A stretch of DNA of 61,758 nt from an uncultured Bacilli bacterium. Lineage in GTDB: Bacteria; Bacillota_I; Bacilli_A; RF39; UBA660. Positions 1 through 29,569 of the stretch are shown piece by piece. Under the pieces are notes generated by a model. The model saw only the letters and a list, made by a program, of their open reading frames with translations. It was not told the DNA's origin and made no database searches. Every line of letters starts with the position of its first letter. Positions within the stretch are counted from its first letter, which is position 1. Location of the stretch: contig CANQGB010000002.1 in the NCBI GenBank assembly GCA_947600335.1, positions 1-61,758 on the forward strand, in the 5' to 3' direction. Made by a program: the position numbers and the translations under genes.

Positions 1-85
1 CCCCCCCCAGACACATGCCTGCTATGCCTAGAGTGAGGAGAGTCTTCTTATATTTATTGTTTTTCTTGAATTTTTTCAATTCCAT
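1..85 (-). CDS. 5' end of an ORF running off the left edge. The N-terminus MELKKFKKNNKYKKTLLTLGIAGMCLGG looks like a signal peptide or membrane anchor
   Basis: ATG at 83-85 (minus) is preceded by an AAGGAGAG RBS (plus-strand 93-100) and a TTGTAA-17-TATAAT promoter further upstream. Only 28 codons are visible. The first 8 nt are a poly-C run that may be an artefact. Confidence 0.3.
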   Translation of the reverse strand, partial: MELKKFKKNNKYKKTLLTLGIAGMCLGG

Positions 86-276: not shown

Positions 277-3200
277 TTATTTTTTTAACACTAAATTTAA
301 AGCATTTATCTCATCATATTTGCTCATTATTTGATATTCTTTTACATCTTCAATACTCAAACCTAAAGTATCTGCAATTATACTATCCGTTATATCAGAA
401 TTACTTAAAGCTAACAATTTTAAATAAATAAGTTTTTGCTCTTTTAAAGTTAATTCTTTTAAATAAGGTGCAAAATAATTAGAACTTAACAACATAGCAA
501 TATAAGTTGGATAATTAGTAGCAATATATAAAACTAATTTATTTACATCATAAATTTCTATATTATCAATTAAAGATGTTAAAACTGTATCTAATGAATA
601 TTGGTGAAGACTAATGATATTATCTATACTTAAACCATCTTGAATATCTCGATAAATAACTAAATCCGTTTTCAAAGTTTTATATTCTTCATATATTTCA
701 TTTTTATCAATTAAATTATCTTTTTCTTCACTTATTTGAGAAGCAATTATCTCCTTATTTAACCATAATTTTATATATCTAATACCATTATAAAAAATTT
801 TTTGCTCCTTTTTATTAAATTTACTTGTATTAACCATTGAATCAATACCATTATTTAATAAAGATTTTAAATTAATTAAAGATTTACTTTTCTTAGTTTT
901 AAAAATCAACTCCACTTTTTTTCTTAAAATAGCCAATTCTTCATTTTGATTTTTTTCTATATAGCTCATAAAAGATTTTGCTCTTTTATCATCCATATTT
1001 AGCCTTTTCGTTAAAATAACTAAACCTTTATTAAACAAATCTAAATCTTGCTGAGATAATTCATAAAATTTAATATTTGTTAACACTTTTTTATGTGTTA
1101 ATTTACTAATAATTGCATATTCGGGAAATTGATTATTAGCCAATTCTTCATAAACTTTTTGTTGAAGCTTTTGAACCTCTAAAAACTCCAAGTTTTGACT
1201 TGTTAAACATTCCAATAGATTTTTTATATTAAACTTAACTTTTATCTCATCTAGAGACAAGTCTAAATATCTTTTTAAAGATTTAACTCCATCCCGAAAT
1301 AATACTTTATCACTACGATTAAATTCTTTAAAATCTATTAAAGCCTTAATATCTCCCTGAGTTAAATTATTTATTAATTGATAATGTTTTACATTGCTAG
1401 CTACTTTATATTCCATAACAATTTGATATTTAACTTTTAACTCAGTTAATTCTTGTGATGTTAACTCACTTTCTGTTAAATAATCTAACATACATTTTTT
1501 TCTTTTTTTATAAATCCCACTTTGTAAAATTTTAGTTATTTGTTTAATTCCCACATAAAAGTTACTTCTTTGAATATTATTTTCAAACTTATCAATTGGT
1601 TTATGAATATCCCCATTTGTCACTGCAATAATTACTTGAGCATATTGATTTTCACAATCTCGATAATCTAATAATATTTGTTCTAACTTTCTCTCTAATT
1701 CACTTATTTCATCCTTACTTGCCTCTTGTTTAATAAAATAATCCATTAAAGTTAAAGACTTAATTTTACCATTAATTGTCTCGACAATTGTTTCTTTATC
1801 ATAAGATAAATATTGGCGAATTACTTTAATTACAGAATATAAATAATTTATTGTTGTTTTAGAAAGGTTTTTCAAAACTATTTCTGAATCTAAACCATTC
1901 GTTAAGATTGTCTGTATTTTTTTAAAAGGAACGCTATTTTCTAAAGCCATAATTAATTCTACTTTTTCCCTAATAATGTTCTTTTGTTCTAATGACATGT
2001 CTTCATTGACAAAATAACTTAGAAAAGTTTTACTTTTTTTCTTTTTGTCTTTAACTTTTTTCTTAGATTTTAATTTTAATGTTAATTCTTCCAAGCTTAA
2101 ATCAATATATTTGGCAATTATTTTTCGACAATTTTTTAATGTATATTTTTGCTCACGCGTTAATTTTAACGATTTAACATCTGTTTCTACCCCATTAATC
2201 AAAATTTGCTCTAATTCACTAAACGATACTACTTGTTTCTTAATTTCCAAATCTATTATTAATTTAATCTTTTGCTTAATTAAGTCTTGTTCTTCTAAAG
2301 TCATATCTTCATTTATAAAATAATCTAGAAAAATTTTAGTTTTTATCTTTATTGCTTTAGGCTTAGTTGCTAATTTTATTGCTATTTCTTCTAAGCTTAA
2401 ATCGATATATTTTGCAATTATCATTTGACATTTTCTTAATGTATATTTTTGCTCATCCGTTAAAGTTATTAAATTAACATTGGTATCTAAACCATCAGGA
2501 AAAATATGCCTAAATATTACAAAAGAATTAACTTGCTTTTTTATTTTCAACTCTATTATCAAATTTACTTTTTGCCTAATTAAATCTTGTTCTTCTAAAG
2601 TCATACTATCATTTACAAAGTAATCTAAAAGCGTTTGTAATTTCTTTTTTATTTTAACCGGAGACTCATATTCTTTTTTTAATTCATTTATATCCTTATT
2701 CAAATATTTTTTAATAAGCCGATTACAACTATAAACTACATTGATATTTTGGATTTCGGAAATGCTTGTTTCTAATCCATTTGCTAACATTTGTTTCAAG
2801 TCTATGAACGACTTAACTTGCTTTTTTATTTTTATATCTATTATCAAATTTACTTTTTGCTTAATTAACTCTTGTTCTTCTAAAGTCATATTATCATTTA
2901 CAAAGTAACTCATAAAAGTTTTATCTTTATTTTTAATTTTAAGATTTACTTTTAATATTATTTTTATTTCTTCTGGACTTAAATTAATATACTTTTTAAT
3001 AGTTTTCTTACATTTATTTAATATACATTTTTGTTCATTAGTTAATTTTTTTAGATTAATATTTGTTTCCAATCCATTGGTCAAAATTTGTTTCAATAAT
3101 ATAAAAGACTCAACTTGTTTTTTAATCTCTCCCTCAATTATCAAATTTAATTTTGCCTTAACCAAATCCTGTTCTTCTACAGACATATTATCTGTTATAA

Positions 3201-3918
3201 AGTATTCCCAAAAAATCTCAGTATTTCTAATATTATTATTTTCTTTTAAAGCAGATTTAGTAATTTCCTTTTTAACAGGTATTTCTTTAACTCTTGTACT
3301 TTTATATTCTTTAAGCAACTTAGGCATTTCTTTAATTACATTATCCACATATTTTAAAACTTTAGTTTCTGCAACCCCTAAAATTTGACTAACCTCTTCC
3401 AAATTCTTTTTTTCTGTATGAATGCCATAATAATATTTAAAGGCAATTCTTTCATCTTGATTCTCATGTAGCATTAAAGCATTACTTAAAACATCTTCGC
3501 TTGCTTGAAGCATTCTTATCAATTGTGTTTTTGAAACTATAGAATCTGAATTTTTAAAAGCATCTTTTTCTTTACTTAAAATATTTTTTTGATAAGCTAT
3601 TAATTCACTATCATTTTTATCTAAAATGATATGCTCAATTACTACTAAAGACTTATTTTCTTTTTCTTGTAAAATCAGCATGAATTTTAACAATTCTTCA
3701 ATTCGAAATAAGATACTATCTAATTTAAAATCATCAGCATAAGAAAATATTATCATATCTCGGTCTTTTCCATCAAACTTTGGTCCAAATTTCTTTTGTA
3801 ATAATTCCATTGAGCTTTTGGCTTTTCTAAAACGTTTAAGAACTATATCGATAAATTCTTTAGGATAATCTTTAAATAATTCATACAATGATTTTACTTG
3901 TTTATTATACTTCATCAT
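277..3918 (-). CDS. Giant (1213 aa) internally repetitive protein of unknown function. It has an N-terminal ~235-aa domain ending in a sigma-70 region-4-like HTH, nine tandem 82-102 aa modules, and a C-terminal ~140-aa domain with a second region-4-like HTH
   Basis: Uninterrupted ORF with an AGAGGT RBS 5 nt before the ATG. N-terminal segment ERIAFKYYYGIHTEKKNLEEVSQILGVAETKVLKYVDNVIKEM and C-terminal segment LKEQKLIYLKLLALSNSDITDSIIADTLGLSIEDVKEY both resemble sigma region 4. Modules start near aa 235, 334, 429, 529, 631, 722, 809, 900 and 982. Confidence 0.85.
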   Translation of the reverse strand: MMKYNKQVKSLYELFKDYPKEFIDIVLKRFRKAKSSMELLQKKFGPKFDGKDRDMIIFSYADDFKLDSILFRIEELLKFMLILQEKENKSLVVIEHIILDKNDSELIAYQKNILSKEKDAFKNSDSIVSKTQLIRMLQASEDVLSNALMLHENQDERIAFKYYYGIHTEKKNLEEVSQILGVAETKVLKYVDNVIKEMPKLLKEYKSTRVKEIPVKKEITKSALKENNNIRNTEIFWEYFITDNMSVEEQDLVKAKLNLIIEGEIKKQVESFILLKQILTNGLETNINLKKLTNEQKCILNKCKKTIKKYINLSPEEIKIILKVNLKIKNKDKTFMSYFVNDNMTLEEQELIKQKVNLIIDIKIKKQVKSFIDLKQMLANGLETSISEIQNINVVYSCNRLIKKYLNKDINELKKEYESPVKIKKKLQTLLDYFVNDSMTLEEQDLIRQKVNLIIELKIKKQVNSFVIFRHIFPDGLDTNVNLITLTDEQKYTLRKCQMIIAKYIDLSLEEIAIKLATKPKAIKIKTKIFLDYFINEDMTLEEQDLIKQKIKLIIDLEIKKQVVSFSELEQILINGVETDVKSLKLTREQKYTLKNCRKIIAKYIDLSLEELTLKLKSKKKVKDKKKKSKTFLSYFVNEDMSLEQKNIIREKVELIMALENSVPFKKIQTILTNGLDSEIVLKNLSKTTINYLYSVIKVIRQYLSYDKETIVETINGKIKSLTLMDYFIKQEASKDEISELERKLEQILLDYRDCENQYAQVIIAVTNGDIHKPIDKFENNIQRSNFYVGIKQITKILQSGIYKKRKKCMLDYLTESELTSQELTELKVKYQIVMEYKVASNVKHYQLINNLTQGDIKALIDFKEFNRSDKVLFRDGVKSLKRYLDLSLDEIKVKFNIKNLLECLTSQNLEFLEVQKLQQKVYEELANNQFPEYAIISKLTHKKVLTNIKFYELSQQDLDLFNKGLVILTKRLNMDDKRAKSFMSYIEKNQNEELAILRKKVELIFKTKKSKSLINLKSLLNNGIDSMVNTSKFNKKEQKIFYNGIRYIKLWLNKEIIASQISEEKDNLIDKNEIYEEYKTLKTDLVIYRDIQDGLSIDNIISLHQYSLDTVLTSLIDNIEIYDVNKLVLYIATNYPTYIAMLLSSNYFAPYLKELTLKEQKLIYLKLLALSNSDITDSIIADTLGLSIEDVKEYQIMSKYDEINALNLVLKK
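700..3216 (-). repeat. In-frame tandem coding repeats (9 modules). Modules 1-4 (about 2029-3216) are still recognisable at the DNA level with a 287-305 bp period
   Basis: The string (g)ttcttctaaagtcat... recurs near 2290, 2590 and 2877, with diverged copies near 1985 and 3172. Protein motif: F(L/M)xYF(V/I)N(D/E)xM(T/S)LEEQxLIxQK(V/I)xLIIxxxIKKQV...LTxEQKxxLxxCxxxIxKYIxLSxEEI. Confidence 0.8.
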
Positions 3919-3931
3919 TTCTACCTCTTTT

Positions 3932-3983
3932 CAAAAAAACATTCAAAATAATAGGTTAGATTACCTAATAATTTGAATGTTTT
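3932..3983 (-). terminator. Long hairpin plus U-tract lying between the DUF362 stop and the RBS of the giant gene. It is either a terminator or a leader attenuator
   Basis: Arms 3937-3956 and 3963-3982 pair at 18 of 20 positions (AAACATTCAAAATAATAGGT / ACCTAATAATTTGAATGTTT) around a 6-nt loop. The plus-strand A7 run 3933-3939 is the U-run on the minus transcript and ends about 14 nt before the giant gene's start codon. Confidence 0.55.
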
Positions 3984-4063
3984 AAATTTTTAAATATTAT
4001 CTCAACTATTTTAGCCACCTAAAAATAGGTTAGCACAAATTTAACCGCGTTGCAATTATTTTC

Positions 4064-4945
4064 TTAGGCAATTTCAATTAATTCGTATTCCTTATTTCCT
4101 ATTCCTAAGTCATATGCCGCATCTATGGTATGAGTTCCATGTCGCGAATTAATTCTTTCTAATAAATGGTCTTTCCCAGCATCTTGCGAATTCTTAACTA
4201 AATCAATACATGCTTGGTCAATAGCTACTGGGTCTAAGGATGCTAAAATTCCAATATCTTGCATACAAGGGTCTTCTGCCGTAGCACAGCAATCACAATC
4301 AACAGACATATTAGCCATGATATTTATATAAGCAATTCTATCTTGAAAATGCTTTGTAATTGATGAAGCCGCATCGGCCATGGCTTCTAAAAATTTATCT
4401 TGATCGACTTGAAACATTTCTTCATAAGTTCCATTTTCTTTTCCTACACAATGAATATATCTTTTGCCTACACTTGAAGAAACCCCAATAGAAAGTTGTT
4501 TCAAAGCTCCACCATAACCACCCATTGGATGTCCTTTAAAATGCGATAAAACTAACATTGAATCATAGTTTTCTAAATGACTACCTACATAATTTTTCTT
4601 AATTACCTTGCCGTTAGGAATTTCCAAAACTACCTTGGCATTTTCTCCATCCATAATGTCGACATCAAAATATTTGCTCCAACCATGCTCTTGCATTAAT
4701 ACCTCATGTTTTGCGGTGGTATCTCTTGCTCCATCATAAGCCGTATTACATTCAACAACGGTTCCGTTAACATAATCAATCATGGGTTTTAAAAATTCTG
4801 GTTTTAAATAATTTTGATTACCAGCTTCTCCTGAATGCACCTTAACAGCCACTTTTCCCGGCAAATTTATTCCTAATTGTTGATAAAGTTTAACAACATT
4901 TTCTTTCGTTAAATTTTTGGTAAAATACACTTTAGCTTTTTCCAT
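4064..4945 (-). CDS. DUF362-like protein with a Cys-rich motif (putative Fe-S binding)
   Basis: 293-aa ORF with a GAAGG RBS. The N-terminus MEKAKVYFTK...VAVKVHSGE and the motif SVDCDCCATAEDPC recall the DUF362 family. Assigned from memory, not searched. Confidence 0.55.
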   Translation of the reverse strand: MEKAKVYFTKNLTKENVVKLYQQLGINLPGKVAVKVHSGEAGNQNYLKPEFLKPMIDYVNGTVVECNTAYDGARDTTAKHEVLMQEHGWSKYFDVDIMDGENAKVVLEIPNGKVIKKNYVGSHLENYDSMLVLSHFKGHPMGGYGGALKQLSIGVSSSVGKRYIHCVGKENGTYEEMFQVDQDKFLEAMADAASSITKHFQDRIAYINIMANMSVDCDCCATAEDPCMQDIGILASLDPVAIDQACIDLVKNSQDAGKDHLLERINSRHGTHTIDAAYDLGIGNKEYELIEIA

Positions 4946-4992
4946 CTATTAACCTTCTTTCTATCTAATAGTATAGCATACTTTCTCCAAAT

Positions 4993-5613
4993 TCATTTAC
5001 TTTTTTCCTCATCTTTTTGCCAAATCAACAGATAACGATTATACAAGCCATATTTAATCTTCGCATTCGGTAAATATTTTTGGGCTAATTTTCTTATGGT
5101 CGTTAACGTTGAAAACTGATAACTAGTCGGAATATTTAACTCTTCACTTGTCTGATTATGATGAAAAAATGTCCCGATTTGACAAGGAATAAACCGGGCT
5201 ATCTCCACTAAATAATCTAATACTGTACTCGATTTATATAACCCAACTATTAGCAAAATTCCCTTATTTTTTAATAATTCTTTAGCTTTTTTAATTGCTT
5301 CTTTTTCCTTCATATGATGGATTGAAGCTACAAAAGTTATTGCTTCAAACTTCTTATCACTTTTAAAATCTGTTAAAGAACTTTCTTTAAAAATAACATT
5401 TGACTTAATTAATGCTTTCTCTTTTGCTCTTTTAACACAATCTTTATCTGTATCAATTCCTACGATAGTTTTACCTTCATCGGCTAAATACAAAGCTAAA
5501 GTCCCATCCCCACAGCCGACATCTAAAATACTTTGACAATTTTCTAACTGTTTTTTAATCCACTTATAATAAGCCGCGTTATGATTCCAAAAAGGCAATT
5601 TCGTATCTTTCAT
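4993..5613 (-). CDS. Class I SAM-dependent methyltransferase
   Basis: Motif I ILDVGCGDGTLALYLA followed by an acidic residue (GIDTD). AAGGTGAG RBS. Confidence 0.75.
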   Translation of the reverse strand: MKDTKLPFWNHNAAYYKWIKKQLENCQSILDVGCGDGTLALYLADEGKTIVGIDTDKDCVKRAKEKALIKSNVIFKESSLTDFKSDKKFEAITFVASIHHMKEKEAIKKAKELLKNKGILLIVGLYKSSTVLDYLVEIARFIPCQIGTFFHHNQTSEELNIPTSYQFSTLTTIRKLAQKYLPNAKIKYGLYNRYLLIWQKDEEKSK

Positions 5614-6440: not shown

Positions 6441-7442
6441 TTAATACTTTTTCTTCACAATCATATCATCATATGCTTCTAATTGTTTAGGATTTAAATA
6501 ACCATCATCTATCGCTTTTTTAATATTCATTTTTAAACCATTTAATTCCAACCTAATTAAGACATTTTTACTATCATGATTTTTTAAATAATACTTATAA
6601 TCTTTATCTTGATAAATTAATTCGTTATTTTCTATATCTTCATCTTGGTAATCATATACATTAAAAAATAAATAACTCGTTTCTTGTTCGATTAATTTGC
6701 GAAAATCAAAACCATTAGTAACCGAATAATAAGCACATCCACCCAGTTGACTTTCTAAGTTTAACCTTTTGCCATCGCTCCAAAACCAAATAGAATCTAA
6801 CAGTTTATCTTCATTATACATTTCAAACTTAAAATTAGTCCCATCACAAAGGAATACCTCACCATATTGTTTACTAGTTTTAACGGCTTCCACTACTTGG
6901 GCAATTTGTTCTGGACTTGTAATCGCGCCTAAAACTTTATCCCCATTTTTAATTTCTATCTTCGTTGTATCTTGCAAACTATCAACTAAAGCACTATCCA
7001 TTTCTTTATTTTTTACTTCTCTTTTTTTATCTGTTACAAAACATTGGTCTAATTCTTTTAAATCTAAATCATTCTTGCGATTATCAAAATACACAACATA
7101 TTCATTATGTAAATAAGTTTGAAATATATTATCATCTTTATTAAAATATAAATCCATATCTTTTAATAGCTCATATGAAGCATCTTTTAAAACAACATAA
7201 ATATCTTCTTCAGTATTTTTAACTGCTTTAAATATCTTAACAGTTTCTTCATTTGTAAAAGTATCTAAGTTTACCTCTTCTAAATTATTTTTTTCACTCG
7301 CTAAATAGCCCCCTAATTTATTTTCTAAACAGGATACTATCTCTTCATCAGTTAGTTCATCACTAATCATTTCTTGAGTCTTTTCTTTACATCCAACCAC
7401 TAAAAAAGAAAACATTATTAAAAATACAATTTTTTTCACCAT
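6441..7442 (-). CDS. Lipoprotein, function unknown
   Basis: The signal peptide MVKKIVFLIMFSFLVVGC has a lipobox Cys. AAGGAG RBS. Confidence 0.7.
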   Translation of the reverse strand: MVKKIVFLIMFSFLVVGCKEKTQEMISDELTDEEIVSCLENKLGGYLASEKNNLEEVNLDTFTNEETVKIFKAVKNTEEDIYVVLKDASYELLKDMDLYFNKDDNIFQTYLHNEYVVYFDNRKNDLDLKELDQCFVTDKKREVKNKEMDSALVDSLQDTTKIEIKNGDKVLGAITSPEQIAQVVEAVKTSKQYGEVFLCDGTNFKFEMYNEDKLLDSIWFWSDGKRLNLESQLGGCAYYSVTNGFDFRKLIEQETSYLFFNVYDYQDEDIENNELIYQDKDYKYYLKNHDSKNVLIRLELNGLKMNIKKAIDDGYLNPKQLEAYDDMIVKKKY

Positions 7443-7459
7443 TTCGGATAACTCCTTTA

Positions 7460-7981
7460 TTATTTATTAGCTAATTTTCTTACTAAAGTACCAGGATTAT
7501 GAAAACATTCATTAAACAAATTAGATGTTTCATAATTAAAAAATATTTCTTGATAATTAATTACATTACCATTTAAATTATAAATAGCCATTCTATTCAA
7601 TTTAGTATAATCAAAAGGTTTTTGAATAAAATAAAAATTTTTCATATCTCGTGAAATAATTGCAATATCTAAAGTAAAAGTCTCATAACATCCTTTCCAT
7701 TTAGGATAATATGAAAAAGCCAAGTAATTTAGATCTAATAATGTTTCTAACTTTTTAATTGGATCATTTAAAGGCGGATTTACATCCATATTAGCCAATA
7801 TATCTTTTAATTCTTCTAATAATTCTAATTTTTCGTTGCTATCTTCATAGCTATTAATTTTATATATCATTCTTTCAATATCTGTATAAATAATTTTTTG
7901 ATATTCAAAATAATTATCTAGTTCTTCTTTACTACATAAATCTATATCATTGGTATAATAATTTAAATGTTTTAATTCCAT
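7460..7981 (-). CDS. Hypothetical protein (173 aa)
   Basis: ORF only, with a weak RBS and no motif I recognise. Confidence 0.5.
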   Translation of the reverse strand: MELKHLNYYTNDIDLCSKEELDNYFEYQKIIYTDIERMIYKINSYEDSNEKLELLEELKDILANMDVNPPLNDPIKKLETLLDLNYLAFSYYPKWKGCYETFTLDIAIISRDMKNFYFIQKPFDYTKLNRMAIYNLNGNVINYQEIFFNYETSNLFNECFHNPGTLVRKLANK

Positions 7982-8143
7982 TTTAACTGCCTACTTTCTA
8001 ATTAAAGCCATTATAACATAAATATTTAATTATACCCCAAAATTTTTTTTCTACTTTACTATTTTAAATTTAAAGTTTTAATTATTTCTATAGCATTCCA
8101 TTTAAGTGTGTTTCCTAAATTGTCAAAGTTTAATATAAAAGCA

Positions 8144-8172
8144 TTGTATTAAGAACAAATGTTCGATATAAT
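8144..8172 (+). promoter_or_regulatory. Sigma-A-type promoter TTGTAT-17 nt-TATAAT driving the small ORF at 8234
   Basis: The -35 is at 8144-8149, the -10 at 8167-8172, and the spacer is exactly 17 nt. Confidence 0.6.
8152..8165. promoter_or_regulatory. LexA (SOS/Cheo) box AGAACAAATGTTCG
   Basis: GAAC-N4-GTTC palindrome plus the 3' flanking G. It fits the Firmicute consensus CGAACRNRYGTTCG at every position except the first, and it lies inside the promoter spacer. Confidence 0.7.
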
Positions 8173-8233
8173 TTTATTGGGAGCATTTAATAGTTGGGTG
8201 ATTGCCAAACTTCATAAAGAAGGGAGGCGATAT

Positions 8234-8317
8234 ATGAACAAGAAGGATTTTTTAATTCTATCTTTAGTAATTCTTATCTTCCTATTAGTATTATTACTAT
8301 TTATAGTTTTAATATAA
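8234..8317 (+). CDS. Unannotated 27-aa hydrophobic peptide MNKKDFLILSLVILIFLLVLLLFIVLI. Candidate type I toxin or SOS-induced membrane peptide
   Basis: The RBS GAAGGGAGG (8219-8227) sits 6 nt before the ATG. The peptide is a basic N-terminus plus a single TM-length helix. A promoter lies upstream and a terminator downstream. It is too short for the supplied ORF track. Confidence 0.5.
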   Translation: MNKKDFLILSLVILIFLLVLLLFIVLI

Positions 8318-8371
8318 AAAGAAAATCACCTAACTCAGCAATGATTTAGGTGAAACCAAAATTATATTGGC

Positions 8372-8406
8372 AACACTCAACATGCGATATTGAATGTTCC
8401 TTTTTT
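8372..8406 (+). terminator. Rho-independent terminator of the small-ORF transcript
   Basis: Stem AACACTCAA / TTGAATGTT (9 bp, 1 mismatch) with a 9-nt loop, followed by CC and a T6 run. Confidence 0.6.
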
Positions 8407-8444
8407 ATTTTATGCAAGTTTCCTTGACAAATACATAATAACAT

Positions 8445-8468
8445 AAAAACGCACTTTTATCAAGTACG
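8445..8468 (-). terminator. Terminator downstream of tRNA-Met
   Basis: The minus strand reads CGTACTT-GATA-AAGTGCG (7 bp including one G-U pair) followed by TTTTT. Confidence 0.5.
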
Positions 8469-8509
8469 CTATCTATTTTTACTCGTTTTTTCCGAGTTTC
8501 ATATCAATT

Positions 8510-8586
8510 TGGTAGCGGGAGAGGGACTCGAACCCCCAACATTTCGGGTATGAACCGAACTATCTAGCCAGTTGATATATCCCGCC
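8510..8586 (-). tRNA. tRNA-Met (anticodon CAT), elongator type, with the CCA end encoded
   Basis: Hand-folded cloverleaf: GGCGGGA TA TATC AACTGGCTA GATA G TTCGG TTCATAC CCGAA ATGTT GGGGG TTCGAGT CCCTC TCCCGCT A CCA. The anticodon arm and T arm closely resemble Bacillus elongator tRNA-Met. There is no GGG/CCC in the anticodon stem, so it is not the initiator. A lysidine-modified tRNA-Ile2 cannot be fully excluded. Confidence 0.85.
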
Positions 8587-8602
8587 ATAACCAAGTAATG
8601 TC

Positions 8603-8631
8603 ATTATATCAAAATATAATTTTCTTGACAA
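8603..8631 (-). promoter_or_regulatory. Promoter TTGTCA-17-TATAAT for tRNA-Met
   Basis: Read on the minus strand. The -10 ends about 16 nt upstream of the mature tRNA 5' end. Confidence 0.55.
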
Positions 8632-8666
8632 TACTTTTTTACTTTCTTATTCTCAACTTATCAAAA

Positions 8667-9320
8667 TCATTTTTTCAACAATTTTAAAATTTCCCCATTT
8701 TTCTCATTAAATATTGAATTATCCAATAATTTAATTCCTAGAAACTTTTCTATTTTATGCAATTCATTTATATCAATTGACTCTACAAAATCAAAGCTAA
8801 TTAATTCTAAAAGTTGTTGATAATATATATCTATTGTTTGTTGATTTTGATTTAATTGTTTTACTTTTAATAAATTCTCTAATTCCTTTAATTTTAACTT
8901 CTTTGCGTAAATATTTTCTGAATCAATCTCCATAAATTCTTTATTTACTAAGTTAATCTTATCTTCTATAGACTCCTTAGGAGAAACATCATAATTTAAT
9001 ATTTCACTAATAACTTCTGTATCATCATTTAAAAGTTTATCTATTAACAAAACCAAATAAGGAGGATTGTATCTATCATAGCTAAACGAATAAACCTCTC
9101 TTGTTTCTTCAAAATAATCCTGTTTTCCAATATAAGTACTTTGAAAATTTCTTATGATTTTCTTATCACTAAACATTGGATAATAATCACTTTGAAACTC
9201 TTGATGTTCAATAAAACTACATTTATCTATAATAGTGTCTTTTAAATTTTTTACTTGTTGTTTATCAAAAGAAACCTCATATTTTTCAATTTTTTCCCCA
9301 TTATTTATAAAATAATACAT
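8667..9320 (-). CDS. Hypothetical protein (217 aa) lying between the two solitary tRNA genes
   Basis: ORF with a GGAGG RBS and an upstream TATAAT. No motif I recognise. Confidence 0.55.
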   Translation of the reverse strand: MYYFINNGEKIEKYEVSFDKQQVKNLKDTIIDKCSFIEHQEFQSDYYPMFSDKKIIRNFQSTYIGKQDYFEETREVYSFSYDRYNPPYLVLLIDKLLNDDTEVISEILNYDVSPKESIEDKINLVNKEFMEIDSENIYAKKLKLKELENLLKVKQLNQNQQTIDIYYQQLLELISFDFVESIDINELHKIEKFLGIKLLDNSIFNEKNGEILKLLKK

Positions 9321-9511: not shown

Positions 9512-9586
9512 TGGTAGTCTATACGGGATTTGAACCCGTGATACCACCTTGAGAGGGTGGTGTCTTAACCCCTTGACCAATAGACC
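9512..9586 (-). tRNA. tRNA-Glu (anticodon CTC), with the CCA end encoded
   Basis: Hand-folded: GGTCTAT TG GTCA AGGGGTTA AGAC A CCACC CTCTCAA GGTGG TATC ACGGG TTCAAAT CCCGT ATAGACT A CCA. The body is very similar to Bacillus tRNA-Glu (TTGGTCAAGCGGTTAAGACAC...), but the anticodon loop reads CTCTCAA. Confidence 0.8.
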
Positions 9587-22270: not shown

Positions 22271-22299
22271 AAAAAAAGAATAGAAACTAAGTCTATTCT
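22271..22299 (-). terminator. rpoC terminator
   Basis: The minus strand reads AGAATAGA-CTTAGTT-TCTATTCT followed by T7, starting at the rpoC stop codon. Confidence 0.75.
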
Positions 22300-25200
22300 T
22301 AATTAATCGGGTCAACTACTTCAGAACTATTGTCCATTAATTTTTCTTCCAGCATTTCATCTGGTTCATCACTCATAAATTCTTTTTCTAAAAGGATTTC
22401 AATATCGCTATATTGTTTAGCTCCTGTTCCAGCTGGAATTAATTTACCAATAATAACGTTTTCTTTTAATCCTCTTAAGTAATCAATTTTACCTTTAATG
22501 GCTGCATCCGTTAAAACTTTTGTTGTTTCTTGGAATGAAGCAGCTGATAAGAAGGAATCAGTTTCAAGAGATGATTTAGTAATACCAAGCATTAGTGGTC
22601 GACCTTTAGCTGGAACACCACCTCTTAGAATAACCGGTTTATTACCTTCAGTAAATTCACGCATCGAAACAGTTAAACCTTCTACAAAGTCAGTATCACC
22701 TTTATCGATAATCCGAACTTTATTAGTCATACGAGAGGCAATAATTTCGATATGTTTATCAGAAATATCAACACCTTGTAATTTATATACCATTTGAATT
22801 TCTTTTAAGATATATTCTTGCGCGGTAATTGGGTCAGTAACGGCTAGTAATTCTTTAGGACTTATAGCACCTTCAGTTAATTTATCACCAGCATTTACTA
22901 CATCGCCAACATTAACTCTAATTTTCATATTATAGTTAGTTACATGCTCACGAACTTCCACATCGTTGGCAATAACAATTTTATATTTGCCATTTTGTTC
23001 TTCAATAGATTCAATTTTACCACTAATTTCTGCGATAGTTGCTTTACCTTTAGGGTTACGAGCTTCGAATAATTCTTCAACTCTTGGAAGACCTTGGGTA
23101 ATATCATCGCCCCCAGCAACACCACCAGAGTGGAATGTCCGCATGGTAAGTTGGGTACCAGGCTCACCAATTGATTGAGCAGCCATAATACCAACAGCTT
23201 CACCAGTTTCAACTAAGTTACCAGTTGCTAAGTTACGACCATAACATTTTTGACAAACGCCATTTTCGCATTTACATGTAAGAATTGAACGAATTTCTAC
23301 GCGTTTAATCCCGGCTTTTTCAATTTTAGCGACGATATTTTCGTTAATTTCTTCGCCTTTTTCTAAGATAACTTCTTTAGTCGTTGGATTGATAATTCTT
23401 TGCGCTGAATAACGACCTAAAATACGTTCTGATAAAGGCTCAATTACCGAACCATCTTTATCATTAATTAAATCGTATACTTCGACACCATTAATTGAAC
23501 CACAATCGTATTCGCGAACAATTATATCTTGAACAACATCAACTAACCGTCTAGTTAAATATCCTGAATCGGCAGTACGAAGAGCAGTATCGGCAGAACC
23601 TTTTCTAGAACCATGGCTAGATAAGAAGAATTCTGATACGCTTAAGCCTTCAATAAAGTTTGATGTAATTGGGATTTCAACAGTTGAACCATCTGGTTTA
23701 GCCATTAAACCCCGCATACCAGCAAGTTGAACGAAATTCGAAATAGAACCACGAGCTCCAGAGTTCATCATCATGAATAATGGATTATCAAAATCACCTT
23801 TAGCCATCGCTTGTAATTCGGCTTTAATTTTATCGCTTTGTTTTGTCCAAGCTTCAATAACATTATTATAACGTTCTTCTTCCGTTATTAAACCACGTTT
23901 AAATTGTTTATTAATTTTATCAACTAATTCATTACCTTCTGCAATGATTTGGTCTTTAGTTTCACTAACTTTAATATCAGCAGCCGAAACTGTAATACCA
24001 GCGATAGTAGAATATTTAAATCCTAAATCTTTTAATTTATCAAGCATTACAGATGTTTCAGTTGTTTTATATCTTTTAAAGACTTGGGCAATAATACTTT
24101 CCAAATTTTTCTTGATAAATGGTTGCACTAAATCGCGTTTTTCCACTTCTTCTTTAATATTTGAACCCATATCAATAAAATATTTACTTGGCGTAATTCC
24201 TTCGATATTTTCTTTAGTTGGTTCATTTATAAATGGGAAAGTATCTGGTAAAATCTCGTTGAAAATAATTTTACCACAAGTAGTTATTAAATATTTATCT
24301 TTTTGGTCATCCATAAATAATTTATGTTTGAAAGAACGAACAGGAACAACAATTCTCGTATGAAGAGTTATTTCTTTTCGGGCATAAGCCATTAATACCT
24401 CATTAGAATCTTTATAAACTTTAGCCTCATTAGGTTCGCCAGCTTTTTCAATAGTTAAGTAGCAGTTACCTAATACCATATCTTGGGATGGGGTAACGAT
24501 TGGTTTACCATCTTTTGGGTTTAAGATGTTATTAGCCCCTAACATTAATATTCTAGCTTCGGCTTTAGCTTCTTCCGAAAGTGGTACATGGACAGCCATT
24601 TGGTCACCATCGAAATCGGCGTTGAATGCGGCACAAACAAGTGGATGTAACCGGATAGCTTTACCACCAACTAATTTTGGTTCGAAGGCTTGAATACCTA
24701 GTCTATGTAAAGTTGGAGCCCGGTTTAGCATTACTGGGTGTTCAGTTATAACATCTTCCACAACATCCCAAACTTGGTCATCACGAGCTTCAATTAATTT
24801 TTTCGCACCTTTAATATTATGGGCTAAACCTCTTTCAACTAAGCCATGAATAACATGCGGTTTAAATAGTTCCAAAGCCATTTCTTTTGGAATACCACAT
24901 TGATACATTTTTAAGTTTGGTCCAACAACGATAACACTACGACCAGAATAGTCGACACGTTTACCTAATAAGTTTTGACGGAAACGACCTTGTTTACCTT
25001 TTAAGATACTAGATAAACTCTTAAGTGGCCGATTACCAGCAGCGGTTACACTTCTTCCTCTTCGACCATTGTCAATTAAGCTATCAACAGCTTCTTGAAG
25101 CATTCTCTTTTCATTTTGAACAATGATAGTTGGAGCTCCAAGTTCCAGTAATTTTTTTAAACGATTATTCCGGTTAATAATTCTTCGATATAAGTCATTT

Positions 25201-25961
25201 AAATCAGATGTGGCAAATCTTCCACCATCTAATTGAATCATTGGCCGTAAATCGGGAGGTAAAACTGGCAATACATTTAAAACCATCCATTCAGGGCGAT
25301 TATTAGATTCTTGGAATGATACTAAGCAATCTAAACGTTTGCCTAAACGAATCCGTTTTTGACCAGTAGCATTTTCTAATTCTTTCTTTAATTCTTCAAC
25401 TTCTTTATCAATATCGACTTCTTTAAGTAGTTCTTGAATAGCTTCAGCACCCATACCTACTTTAAAGCTTGAGCCATATTTTTCATAATAAGCCCGATAT
25501 TCTTTATCAGATAAAGTTTGTTTTTTCGCAAGTGGAGCACTTCCGGGGTCAATTACAACATAACTAACAAAGTATAAAACTTCTTCCAAATCTCTTGGTG
25601 ACATATCTAGAACTAGACCCATTTTCGAAGGAACACCTTTAAAGAACCAAATATGGCTACAAGGACTAGCAAGTTCAATATGACCCATTCTTTCCCGTCT
25701 TACTTTTGATTTAGTTACTTCAACACCACAACGGTCACAAACAACATTTTTATATCTTAATCTTTTATATTTACCACAACTACATTCATAATCTTTAGTT
25801 GGTCCAAAGATTTTTTCACAGTATAGACCATCTCTTTCAGGTTTTAAGGTCCGATAGTTAATAGTTTCTGGTTTTTTAACTTCACCATAAGACCAAGAAC
25901 GAATCTTATCAGGAGAGGCAATACCTATCTTGATTCCTTTAAAATTATTTACTTCCATCAT
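22299..25961 (-). CDS. rpoC: DNA-directed RNA polymerase subunit beta'
   Basis: 1220 aa. NADFDGDQM catalytic motif and a zinc-finger CxC...CxxC at the N-terminus. Confidence 0.98.
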
Positions 25962-28900
25962 AAGATATCACCTTCCTTTAAATCTTCTTCTTCCAAATCA
26001 TCTGGAAATTCTAAATCATCTAAATCGTTATCAAATTCGCTTTCTTCCTCTTCGTAATCGGAATTTTCCGGTTCTTCTGGCTCAGTAGGTTCTTGAATAT
26101 CAATTTCATCTATTCTAATAACATTATCTTCTTTATCTTCTTCCTCTTCAATGTCTTTGATATCAATTAATTTATCATCATTGTTAAGGATTTGAATATC
26201 TAAGCCTAAAGCTTGGAATTCTTTAATTAATACTCTAAAGCTTTCTGGTACGCCAGCTTGATTAACTGTTTTACCTTTAACTAAAGATTCATATACTTTA
26301 ACCCGACCAACAACATCATCGGATTTAATTGTTAAGATTTCTTGAAGAACATGAGCAGCACCATAAGCATATAGAGCCCAAACTTCCATTTCCCCAAATC
26401 TTTGACCACCAAATTGGGCTTTACCACCAAGTGGTTGTTGAGTTACTAAGGAATAAGGTCCTGTTGCCCGAGCATGTAATTTATCATCAACCATGTGGTG
26501 AAGCTTTACCATGTACATAACACCAACATTGATACGATGTTCAAATGGTTCACCAGTTCGACCATTGATTAATTCAACTTTACCATCTTCACTCATGCCA
26601 GCTTCTTTCATTTCTTCATGAATATCATCAAGGTTAGCTCCATCGAATACTGGAGTGGCATATTTAACGCCTAATCGTTTTCCGGCCATTCCTAAATGAA
26701 CTTCCAAAATTTGACCGATGTTCATCCGCGATGGAACACCTAATGGATTTAACATGATATCAACTGGACGACCATCTGGTAAATAAGGCATATCTTCTTC
26801 TGGTAAGACTAATGAGATAACACCTTTGTTACCATGACGACCACTCATCTTGTCACCAACTTGAATTTTCCGCTTTTGAATAATATATACTCTAATTATT
26901 TTGAATACTCCTGGTGGCATGTCATCACTATTTTCTTTAGTATAAACTTTAACATCATGAACAATACCATCAGCACCATGCTCTACTTTTAATGAAGTAT
27001 CTCGAACTTCCCGAGTTTTTTCACCAAATATAGCATGTAATAATTTTTCTTCACTAGTTAATTCTTGAACCCCTTTTGGTGTTACTTTACCAACTAAGAT
27101 ATCGCCTTCGTGAACTTCAGTACCAATTCGAACAATACCTTCACTATCCAAATTACGGCGAGCTTCTTCACCAACATTCGGAATATCACGAGTAATTTCT
27201 TCTGGTCCTAATTTAGTATCACGGCATTCAATTTCATATCTTTCAATATGTAGTGATGTATAGACATCATCTTTAACTAATCTTTCATTCAAAATAACGG
27301 CATCTTCATAGTTATAACCATTGTAAGTCATGAACGCAACAGTCATATTTTTACCAAGAGCAAGTTCTCCGTTTTCAGTACTAGGTCCATCGGCAATAAC
27401 TTGGCCAGCATGAATTTTGTCGCCTTTTTTAACAAGTGGTCTATGATTTAAACTACTTGAAGCATTAGTTCTTTCGAAATTAGCTAAGTAATAAGTATCT
27501 TTAGCTTTAGCGGTTTTAACAACAATTTTTAAAGCATCCGCATATTCAACAACACCATCCGCTTTAGCAACAACTGTACTTCCTGAGTATTTAGCGGCTA
27601 CATGTTCAACACCCGTACCAACAATTGGACTTTCGGATGTTAATAAAGGAACTGCTTGCCGTTGCATGTTGGCACCCATTAAAGTACGGTTAGCATCATC
27701 GTAATCTAGGAATGGAATACAACTAGTTGTAATAGCAACAATTTGACTTGGAGCGACATCGACATAGTTTACTTGTTCCCGATTAACCATCACGTTATCG
27801 CCATTAATTCGAACGATTACTTTATCATCGACAATGCGTTTATTATCATCTAATTTAACAGTTGCTTGTGAAATATAGAAATCGGCTTCTTCATCTGCGG
27901 TTAAGTAAACAACATCATCTTGAACTACTCCATCAATTACTTTACGATATGGCGTGGTAATAAAACCATATTCATTGATTTTTGCATAACCGGCTAAAGA
28001 TGTAATAAGTCCGATATTTTGACCTTCTGGTGATTCGATTGGACAAATCCGACCATAATGGCTTGCATTAACATCTCGAACTTCCATACCTGCCCGGTCT
28101 CTTGATAGTCCACCTGGACCTAAGCTTGATAACCGCCGTTTATTAGTTAACTCGGCAATCGGATTGATTTGGTCCATGAAAGCCGATAATTGAGATGAAC
28201 CAAAGAATTCTTTTAAGACAGCTGTTACTGGGCGAATATTAATTAAAGATTTTGGCGTAACATTTTCAATTTCTTGGGTAGTCATTCGTTCCCGAATAAC
28301 TCTTTCCATTCTCGCCATACCAGTTCTAAATTGGTTTTGAATTAATTCACCAACTTGGCGAACTCGACGATTTCCTAAATGGTCAATTTCATCGACATTA
28401 CCAATACCAGCATGTAAGTTTAAATAATAAGAAATAGAAGCATAAATATCTGAAATTGTTAAACGTTTAATATCGATATTTTGGTCATTACCAATAATCT
28501 TAATAACTTTATCAGGATTTTGTTTATCATAAACTAAAATCTCTTGAATTTGGTCATATTCATCTAATTCTTCATTAATAATAGTTTTCTTTAAACCAAA
28601 ACCATTTTTTAGAATTGGTTTAATTTTTTCTAACAAGTCTTTAGTAACGACATCGCCTTTTTTAGCGACTACTTCTTTGCCATCTTTAATATCCATAGCT
28701 AAAGTGGTATTAAGTAAACGGTCAGCAACATTTAATTTTTTATTGAATTTATAACGACCTACTTTCGCTAAGTCATAACGGAAATGGTCAAAGAAACGAA
28801 CAACTAATTGGTTTTTCGCTGAATCTAATGTAGCTGGTTCGCCTGGTCTTAATTTTTCGTAAATTTCAATTAAAGCTTCATCACTATTCTTAGTATTATC

Positions 28901-29569
28901 TTTCAAAATAGTATTTTCTAAAATTTCATTTTCGCCAAAGACTGACTTGATATCTTCATCATTTGATAAACCTAACGCTCTTAAGAAAGTTGTGACTGGT
29001 ACCTTTCTTGTCCGGTCAATACGTACATACATAATATCCCGAGCATCAAGTTCATATTCTAGCCAAGTTCCTTTATTTGGTATTACTTCCCCGGAAATAA
29101 TCCGCCGACCATTTTTATCAATTTCCCGTTTAAAGTAAACACTTGGACTACGAACTAATTGAGAGATAATAACTCTTTCAGCTCCGTTGATAATAAATGT
29201 TCCCGCATCAGTCATCAAAGGCATATCGCCTAAGAAAATTTCTTGTTCTTTAACTTCACCAGTTTCATGAATAAATACTCGTGCTTGAACCTTTAATGGT
29301 GCGGCGTAATTTACCATTCTTTCTTTGGATTCTTTTATAGAATATCTAGGCGTGTCAAAAGAATAATCGCCAAAGTCTATTGTAACATTTCCTGTAAAGC
29401 TTTCGACAGGAAATAATTCTTCAAATACTTCTTTGATTCCTTCTTCTAAGAACCATTGATATGATTTTTTTTGGATTTCTAGCAAATCAGAAAGTTCCAT
29501 AGTATTTTTGGATTTAGAGAAACTTCTTCTCTTAACATAATCTCCGAATTTTTGTACTTTATAAGCCAC
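25958..29569 (-). CDS. rpoB: DNA-directed RNA polymerase subunit beta (GTG start, acidic C-terminal tail)
   Basis: 1203 aa with conserved beta-subunit blocks throughout. The GTG at 29569 follows a GGGGTGA RBS. The stop overlaps the rpoC start (ATGA). Confidence 0.98.

Follow-up and report, generated by a model that had tools for sequence, protein, structure and literature searches.

The window analyzed here is a stretch of 61,758 nucleotides (nt) from an uncultured Bacilli bacterium (contig CANQGB010000002.1) with a G+C content of 23%, and its minus strand carries, at 277..3918, an uninterrupted open reading frame (ORF) for a 1213-amino-acid (aa) protein in which a tandem array of ~95-aa modules is placed between two conserved end domains; all features of this repeat gene described below lie on the minus strand. 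A Shine-Dalgarno sequence, AGAGGT, was read from the sequence at 3923..3928; the first ATG follows after 4 nt and the second (3915) after 7 nt, the latter being the better spacing. The public gene calls use the second ATG as well, giving the 1212-aa product P0001, and the true start of the gene is likely the ATG at 3915. A scan for promoters and terminators was uninformative in this AT-rich DNA (37 sites versus 36.9 expected). No signal peptide, membrane segment or surface feature is evident in the translation. The repeat gene is genuine and chromosomal, and its product is a cytoplasmic protein.

The nine modules of the array, placed by the motif [FLM]x[SDE][YC][FLI], follow one another head to tail from ORF aa 236, 335, 430, 530, 632, 724, 810, 901 and 983. 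An earlier reading of this ORF, made from the sequence alone and referred to here as the original prediction, had described such a layout of nine ~95-aa modules. When the protein was cut at the boundaries given there and the pieces were run against each other by BLASTP, the layout was confirmed (E 1e-9 to 1e-38): modules 1-4 are 42-60% identical to one another (E 1e-25 to 1e-38), and modules 5, 7 and 9 resemble these four with E values of 1e-9 to 1e-17. Weak in the pairwise comparison, modules 6 and 8 are nevertheless recognized by the module hidden Markov model (HMM) of the family described below. Modules 1-4 (2098..3210; cores 2980-3210, 2695-2913, 2398-2628 and 2098-2328) are still repetitive as DNA, with copies 285-306 bp apart and 66-79% identical across 1938-3239; the repeat period that had been proposed, including its anchors, was borne out. 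The longest near-exact stretch common to the DNA repeats is 23 nt, and the repeat DNA contains no simple-sequence tracts of note. Modules 5-9 occupy 754..2022 (cores 1801-2022, 1519-1746, 1258-1488, 994-1215 and 754-969). A tenth, cryptic module, called module 0, was found by the iterated module HMM inside the N-terminal domain (3685..3885; ORF aa 12-78, P0001 residues 11-77), and an HMM made from 195 array modules only recognizes the same region in many family members (E 1e-5 to 1e-8); the protein in the window thus has ten modules. The modules are near-neutral, and the linkers between them are basic, with a family average of +2 over ~18 aa and up to +8 in the window protein, whose overall isoelectric point (pI) is 9.07. 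A Lys-rich linker with a net charge of +3 leads from the N-domain into the array (3214..3300; ORF aa 207-235), the equivalent stretch being disordered in the model of the module-less relative P0012 that is described below, and an acidic linker with a net charge of -7 precedes the C-domain (619..753; ORF aa 1056-1100).

The structure of the repeat unit was modeled with AlphaFold2 on modules 3-4, using an 18-row alignment of paralogous and orthologous module pairs. The di-module model had a mean predicted local distance difference test score (pLDDT) of 85.8, with the linker below 50, and a predicted template-modeling (TM) score of 0.47, as would be expected for two independent globules. In the model each module consists of a short helix (FLDYF), a 20-residue helix (acidic, MTLEEQ...), a 9-residue helix, a 15-residue loop with the conserved NG/YG-x-x-L-D/E-T pattern, a 17-residue helix and a 9-residue helix, after which comes the basic linker. 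The module is accordingly modeled as a compact, autonomous four-helix unit of ~75 aa, strung on disordered basic linkers like beads on a string, and as predicted it is an unclassified four-helix domain, different both from a coiled coil and from a tight helix-turn-helix (HTH). A Foldseek search of the PDB with the di-module model returned only noise, with nothing below E=1, and the module profile had no match among PDB sequences. In a Pfam search with twenty modules, the HTH, sigma and DnaB_2 families were all without a match even with a cut-off of E<=10, and when the 195-231-module profile was compared by hhalign with sigma region 4 and with the HTH regions of the two ends, the probabilities were 0.4-2.7%. 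The idea of a region-4-type HTH in the second half of every module finds no support in the predicted fold, in Pfam or in hhalign, and the description of the protein as a polymer of up to eleven HTH-like units falls with it, the modules being not detectably HTH or sigma-like. A class of tandem HTH-repeat proteins was likewise rejected, since a 15-aa loop occupies the tight-turn position and the Pfam HTH and hhalign searches were negative. The concern that the modules are a generic coiled coil is excluded by the AlphaFold2 model.

The repeat protein belongs to a family. When 1.84 billion representatives (clusters at 50% identity) were searched exhaustively by phmmer with residues 1-1200 as the query, 45 proteins of 90-1517 aa came up at E<=1e-3, 31 of them at E<=1e-10. 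What these 45 proteins have in common is the N-domain of ~205 aa, the C-domain of ~112 aa or both, and the iterated module HMM located a total of 231 modules, each protein having between 0 and 13; P0012 (396 aa), P0013 and P0007 have no array. The family layout consists of the N-domain and the C-domain at the ends and modules of the FxxYF...YG/NG...L(T/S)xxE type between them, and the window protein has all of these parts (N-domain HMM E 1e-68, C-domain HMM E 1e-38, 10 module matches). Four further GTDB species representatives with the complete layout (937-1420 aa, 7-11 array modules) were found with a 7-sequence C-domain alignment; a GTDB scan with the full-length alignment did not find relatives. 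A word-indexed search of 5.8 billion proteins with a 25-sequence C-domain alignment gave zero matches despite the presence of family members in that collection, and negatives from this kind of search are untrustworthy for short, compositionally biased domains. Approximately one third of the family (P0003, P0005, P0007, P0011, P0014, P0015, P0018, P0022, P0025, P0029 and P0045) carries an extra conserved N-terminal extension of ~140-155 aa (…KYEYLDF…GNxEIYDA…RRRKDL…), which the window protein lacks and which is not detectably related to the module, either end domain or sigma region 2.

The source labels of the family are 'Erysipelotrichales bacterium' and '(uncultured) Bacilli bacterium' only, and the family is restricted to uncultured low-GC gut Bacilli/Erysipelotrichales known from metagenome-assembled genomes (MAGs). 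No relatives were seen on IMG/VR viral contigs or JGI metagenome contigs at the sensitivity used, and the viral contigs therefore give no sign of a phage origin. The window also contains an rpoC/rpoB pair (1220 and 1203 aa) at 22299-29569, and its RpoB has more than 100 public relatives at 82-99% identity, those at 87-89% being labeled 'Bacilli bacterium'. In comparison, a single relative of the repeat protein exceeds 40% identity, which indicates either far faster evolution than that of the core genome or a patchy distribution.

The two end domains are the conserved hallmark of the family. The N-domain (3301..3912; ORF aa 3-206) consists of one four-helix module, two helices and an HTH sub-domain resembling sigma-70 region 4 (3301..3504; ORF aa 139-206; SEDVLSNAL...ERIAFKYYYG...LEEVSQILGVAETKV...). 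The ERIAFKYYYG... stretch scores 18.4 bits against Pfam Sigma70_r4 (E 0.0015), which is below the cut-off of 24.1. The acidic C-domain (283..618; ORF aa 1101-1212; pI 4.6) is the most conserved part of the family and ends in a second, atypical region-4-like unit at 325..453 (LTLKEQKLIYLKLL...ITDSIIADTLGLSIEDVKEYQIM); a few family C-domains show weak Pfam matches to Sigma70_r4, HTH_36 and HTH_11. The two HTH units align with each other in the correct register by hhalign (E 6.5e-4), and each aligns in register, with low probability, to sigma region 4 (N-domain E 0.02, C-domain E 0.0021). The region-4 alignment used was small, and its RpoD sequence was verified as 100% identical to 1tlh_B, the other sequences having been entered by hand.

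The end domains were modeled in P0012, the N-domain of which matches the family N-domain HMM at E 5e-65. The AlphaFold2 model, built on a 33-sequence family alignment, had a mean pLDDT of 86.1, with ~95 for the N-domain (1-217), below 50 for the linker (218-266) and ~90 for the C-domain (267-396). Foldseek lists for this model from both the PDB and BFVD were headed by sigma factors, including the extracytoplasmic function (ECF) sigma factor SigH, AlgU, SigE, FliA, SigK, SigW, SigA and phage sigma factors. The best local match was region 4 of SigA (6onu_F; 62 columns, 2.1 Å, TM 0.70, probability 0.93, E=4), and other local matches were region 4 of SigL and SigD, the YlxM-like 1xsv and KorA. It is concluded with medium confidence that both end domains contain sigma-4-like HTH units. 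The original prediction of a region-4-like HTH at each end is thereby supported by sub-threshold Pfam, in-register hhalign and local Foldseek matches that agree with it, each of them weak.

Several observations weigh against this assignment and against the function built on it. The end-domain model is that of a homolog 28-30% identical to the window protein, and not of the window protein itself; none of its Foldseek matches reaches E<0.27, and these matches are given for the whole P0012 model with the aligned part not reported. No sequence match to any HTH family passes a curated threshold, so that it is several weak signals, all in agreement, that carry the sigma-4 assignment. Conserved basic residues were not found at the recognition-helix positions of either HTH, family-wide. 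At the C-terminus the 'recognition' helix of the homolog model is only ~5 residues long and the domain is acidic (pI 4.6, net charge -5), which together argue against a classical DNA-reading role at that end. Furthermore, gene neighborhoods vary between lineages of the family and are housekeeping in character; as they are not conserved, they give no functional clue. Finally, no RNA-seq runs carrying the repeat gene were listed.

With these points in mind, the repeat protein is tentatively proposed to be a two-ended adaptor or scaffold in transcription or nucleoid organization, an assignment that is possible and still doubtful. The N-terminal region-4-like HTH would contact DNA, or an RNA-polymerase or sigma-type partner, and the acidic C-domain would bind a protein partner. 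The module array and its basic linkers would set the reach between the two ends as an adjustable-length spacer, and the array may add multivalent, low-specificity contacts to nucleic acid or protein. Since module-less members exist, the array would modulate a core function rather than constitute it. The explanation taken as a whole, with the anatomy described above and the function suggested here, is judged to fall slightly short of an even chance of being right.

A pure protein-protein scaffold is an unlikely reading, although part of the domain anatomy speaks for it. The modules would here dock HTH or sigma-4 domains of other molecules, or of the protein itself, and so give rise to polymers or to a 'sponge' for regulators. 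In the homolog model, module 0 and the region-4-like sub-domain form one continuous domain of high predicted confidence, and the array modules are homologous to module 0; the acidic character and truncated recognition helix of the C-domain, and the lack of conserved basic residues at the HTH recognition positions, would also suit a protein that contacts other proteins. However, the existence of module-less members makes the array dispensable for the core function, and the basic linkers and overall pI of 9.07 fit poorly with a scaffold of this kind. A bolder extension, which we regard as a long shot, takes the four-helix module to be a new domain whose native job, as seen in the N-domain, is to lie beside a sigma-4-type HTH, so that the array would be a multivalent docking rail for sigma-4/HTH domains. 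The docked targets could be the protein's own ends, which would let it self-assemble as a mesh on the nucleoid, or genuine sigma factors and regulators; the protein would then be a stoichiometric 'sigma sponge' or a transcription-hub scaffold with a capacity tuned by module number. If true, the protein would stand for a new type of organizer of bacterial transcription or of the nucleoid.

The adaptor reading must also be weighed against a divergent alternative sigma factor or sigma mimic, in which sigma-like ends would bind the RNA polymerase core and the array would lie at the place of the region 3.2 linker. Whole sigma factors do stand first in both Foldseek lists (alignments of 156-240 columns), the protein has two region-4-like units, and module-less members such as P0012 (396 aa) are the size of a sigma factor. 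However, the long alignments have a root-mean-square deviation of 16-22 Å and a TM of ~0.3, meaning that only one small domain superposes, and region 2 was detected neither in the N-domain nor in the modules nor in the ~150-aa N-terminal extension. Pfam searches of the window protein, 26 N-domains and 8 full-length relatives gave no match to sigma region 2, and hhalign with region 2 of RpoD, SigA and RpoE (sequences entered by hand) against the extension, the first half of the N-domain and the modules gave probabilities of <=0.3%; the repeat protein is on these grounds not a sigma factor. As known from the holoenzyme structure, the RNA exit channel would not accommodate an insertion of at least 800 residues in the 3.2 linker. 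We consider the reading as a divergent sigma factor or sigma mimic improbable.

The history of the array was examined by comparison with P0002, the only close relative among 5.8 billion proteins (1405 aa, 59-66% identical), which is encoded in a MAG within the same neighborhood, with methyltransferase and DUF362 genes upstream. The N-domain, modules 5-9 (60-73% identical) and the C-domain of P0001 have one-to-one orthologs in P0002, and the N-proximal sub-array differs, with four modules in P0001 versus six in P0002 and totals of 9 versus 11. Paralogous modules inside P0002 are up to 81% identical, and a short 'VVYSCN' module variant stands at position 2 in P0001 and at position 6 in P0002. 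Judged from these alignments, modules 5-9 are old and conserved and modules 1-4 are young duplicates; the gradient of similarity along the array then reflects young duplications beside an old, stable set. At the level of sequence comparison, the array is shown to evolve by lineage-specific tandem duplication of N-proximal modules, with the distal modules and both ends under purifying selection. The expansion at the 5' side suggested originally is borne out by the four young modules versus six in the ortholog and by the high identity of the paralogs, but the progressive decay ascribed to modules 5-9 is not, as their one-to-one orthologs at 60-73% identity speak against it.

The ratio of nonsynonymous to synonymous substitution rates (dN/dS; Nei-Gojobori) between the P0001 and P0002 genes was 0.24 for the N-domain, 0.33 for modules 1-4, 0.29 for modules 5-9, 0.14 for the C-domain and 0.30 for the whole gene. 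Values of 0.14-0.33 in every segment indicate that the whole reading frame is under purifying selection.

A differing module number could also point to a phase-variable or copy-number-variable contingency gene, in which frequent recombination between modules changes the repeat number, and both the 9 versus 11 modules of the two closest lineages and the range of 0-13 across the family would agree with this. The DNA repeats are, however, only 66-79% identical with no near-exact stretch longer than 23 nt, P0002 recurs as the same 1405 aa on contigs of several assemblies, well-supported alternative junctions were not found in four sequencing runs, and the protein has neither a signal peptide nor surface features. 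A contingency gene is thus very improbable; this class was rejected when near-identical repeats, simple-sequence tracts and supported length variants were not found, and the phase-variable product that had been suggested is unlikely, given DNA repeats of <=79% identity and the lack of simple-sequence tracts of note.

Logan contigs from four runs of one rabbit-gut metagenome sample covered the ORF at ~5x with 0 mismatches, and single Logan pieces cross several (>3) repeat periods, for example 2219-3199 and 187-1966; with DNA repeats that are <=79% identical, collapse or expansion during assembly is unlikely. An assembly artefact or spurious long ORF in AT-rich repetitive DNA, for which the low depth (~5x) of a short-read metagenome and the lack of RNA evidence might be cited, is effectively refuted already by contigs from four runs that are identical base for base through the repeat boundaries, by the syntenic ortholog with its dN/dS of 0.30 and conserved end domains, by the 45 family representatives and 4 GTDB species, and by the confident AlphaFold2 models. 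The caveat in the original prediction that the long ORF might be an artefact of repeat assembly is excluded by the mismatch-free contigs.

Some features of the surrounding DNA and of individual relatives were also noted. A further minus-strand gene lies ~190 nt downstream of the repeat gene, with the Shine-Dalgarno sequence GGAGAG and an ATG at approximately position 84, and is cut by the end of the window; its N-terminus (window 1-84) resembles a signal peptide (MELKKFKKNNKYKKTLLTLGIAGMCLGG), and its probable counterpart is the 342-aa gene located after P0002 in locus L001. The window opens on the plus strand with a run of eight C, and in 3 of the 4 runs the Logan word depth over positions 1-150 was 200-250x versus ~5x elsewhere in the window, which looks like a contig-end artefact or a stretch common to something abundant. 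Upstream of the repeat gene, three successive minus-strand ORFs (333, 173 and 217 aa) without a Pfam match occupy 6441-9320, and the 217-aa ORF (8667-9320) is flanked by tRNA-Met (8510-8586) and tRNA-Glu (9512-9586). In the lineage of P0017, the family gene (L006:10001-14365) overlaps by 4 nt an upstream 461-aa gene (L006:8619-10004) without a Pfam match; this arrangement suggests translational coupling of the two, and no such partner gene was seen in the window. In a mouse-gut Bacilli MAG (L009), a 411-aa ORF (1294-2526) that carries only the family C-domain (E 2e-14) lies directly upstream of a 937-aa full-length member (2530-5340), and this adjacency indicates a split or paralogous pair in that lineage. 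A 1413-aa member on a contig labeled 'uncultured Muribaculaceae bacterium' (L011; CAZKFB010000009.1) has the same module layout as the member in a water-deer Bacilli MAG (L010), and the contig is probably mis-binned.

The layout of the repeat protein is new to the resources consulted. Pfam, NCBIfam, PHROG and PADLOC contain no family that scores above threshold on any part of it; these scans took in the whole protein, 20 modules, 26 N-domains and 25 C-domains and returned only sub-threshold or scattered matches. Sequence and profile searches of the PDB with the whole protein and with module, C-domain and N-domain profiles gave nothing meaningful. A match of the C-domain to a designed 'CAP repeat' (8vd6) was set aside because it reflects only the generic T-x-EEI-x-x-LGLS pattern of HTH domains. 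A full-text search of the literature did not find a described protein with this layout, and the earlier statement that no characterized protein is built in this way stands, the family, PDB sequence and literature searches all being empty.

The family and its repeat module are absent from Pfam, NCBIfam, PHROGs, PADLOC and the PDB, and they come from a gut Bacilli clade known only from MAGs. They also provide a clean natural example of a cassette array, with 0-13 copies and distinguishable young and old modules flanked by a pair of conserved sigma-4-like domains. Should the ends bind DNA or RNA polymerase, the family would represent a new architectural type of Firmicutes transcription or nucleoid factor with the module as a new interaction domain; if they do not, a useful new domain definition is still gained for the annotation of these genomes. 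The practical value today is modest because the function is not established and the organisms are uncultured.

Among known systems, DnaD/DnaB_2 and several classes of helical repeats were compared with the modules. The DnaD/DnaB_2 (DDBH2) motif, with its aromatic-x-x-x-F start, acidic helix and '...IL.nW..G..T' pattern, is superficially module-like, and B. subtilis DnaB carries tandem copies of a small helical domain. This identity (PF07261) was rejected, as none of the 20 modules had a DnaB_2 match at E<=10 and no DnaD structure was among the Foldseek matches. TPR/Sel1, HEAT/ARM and TFIIB cyclin repeats are, like the modules, all-helical units repeated in variable number, and TFIIB and Brf2 appear low in the Foldseek list of P0012. 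However, TPR, HEAT and cyclin repeats pack as one continuous solenoid or as a pair, whereas the modules of the window protein are predicted to be autonomous globules on disordered basic linkers, and no Pfam repeat family matches them.

The end domains are most similar to sigma-70 region 4 (PF04545). Both ends show the arrangement of a helix ending in aromatic-G, a short helix, a turn and a helix, both align in register with region 4 of RpoD, SigA, RpoS, RpoH and RpoE, and the homolog model finds its closest local match in structure in region 4 of M. tuberculosis SigA (6onu_F). Dissimilar from region 4, the end domains score below the Pfam cut-off and lack the conserved basic residues of the recognition helix, the units are not accompanied by a region 2 or 3, and the C-terminal unit has a third helix of ~5 residues within an acidic domain. 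Region-4-type folds that stand alone outside sigma factors are found in UPF0122/YlxM (1xsv; 87 columns at TM 0.47 by local Foldseek) and in the plasmid regulator KorA (5clv; 60 columns at TM 0.65); unlike the window protein, YlxM and KorA are single-domain proteins of ~100 aa without a module array or a second HTH domain, and without sequence similarity to it. Of all known elements, the sigma-70 region 4 fold, which also stands alone in YlxM-like proteins and KorA, comes closest, and the repeat protein is best classed as a new family in which a known HTH type is reused in a novel architecture, alongside a repeat module that is unclassified.

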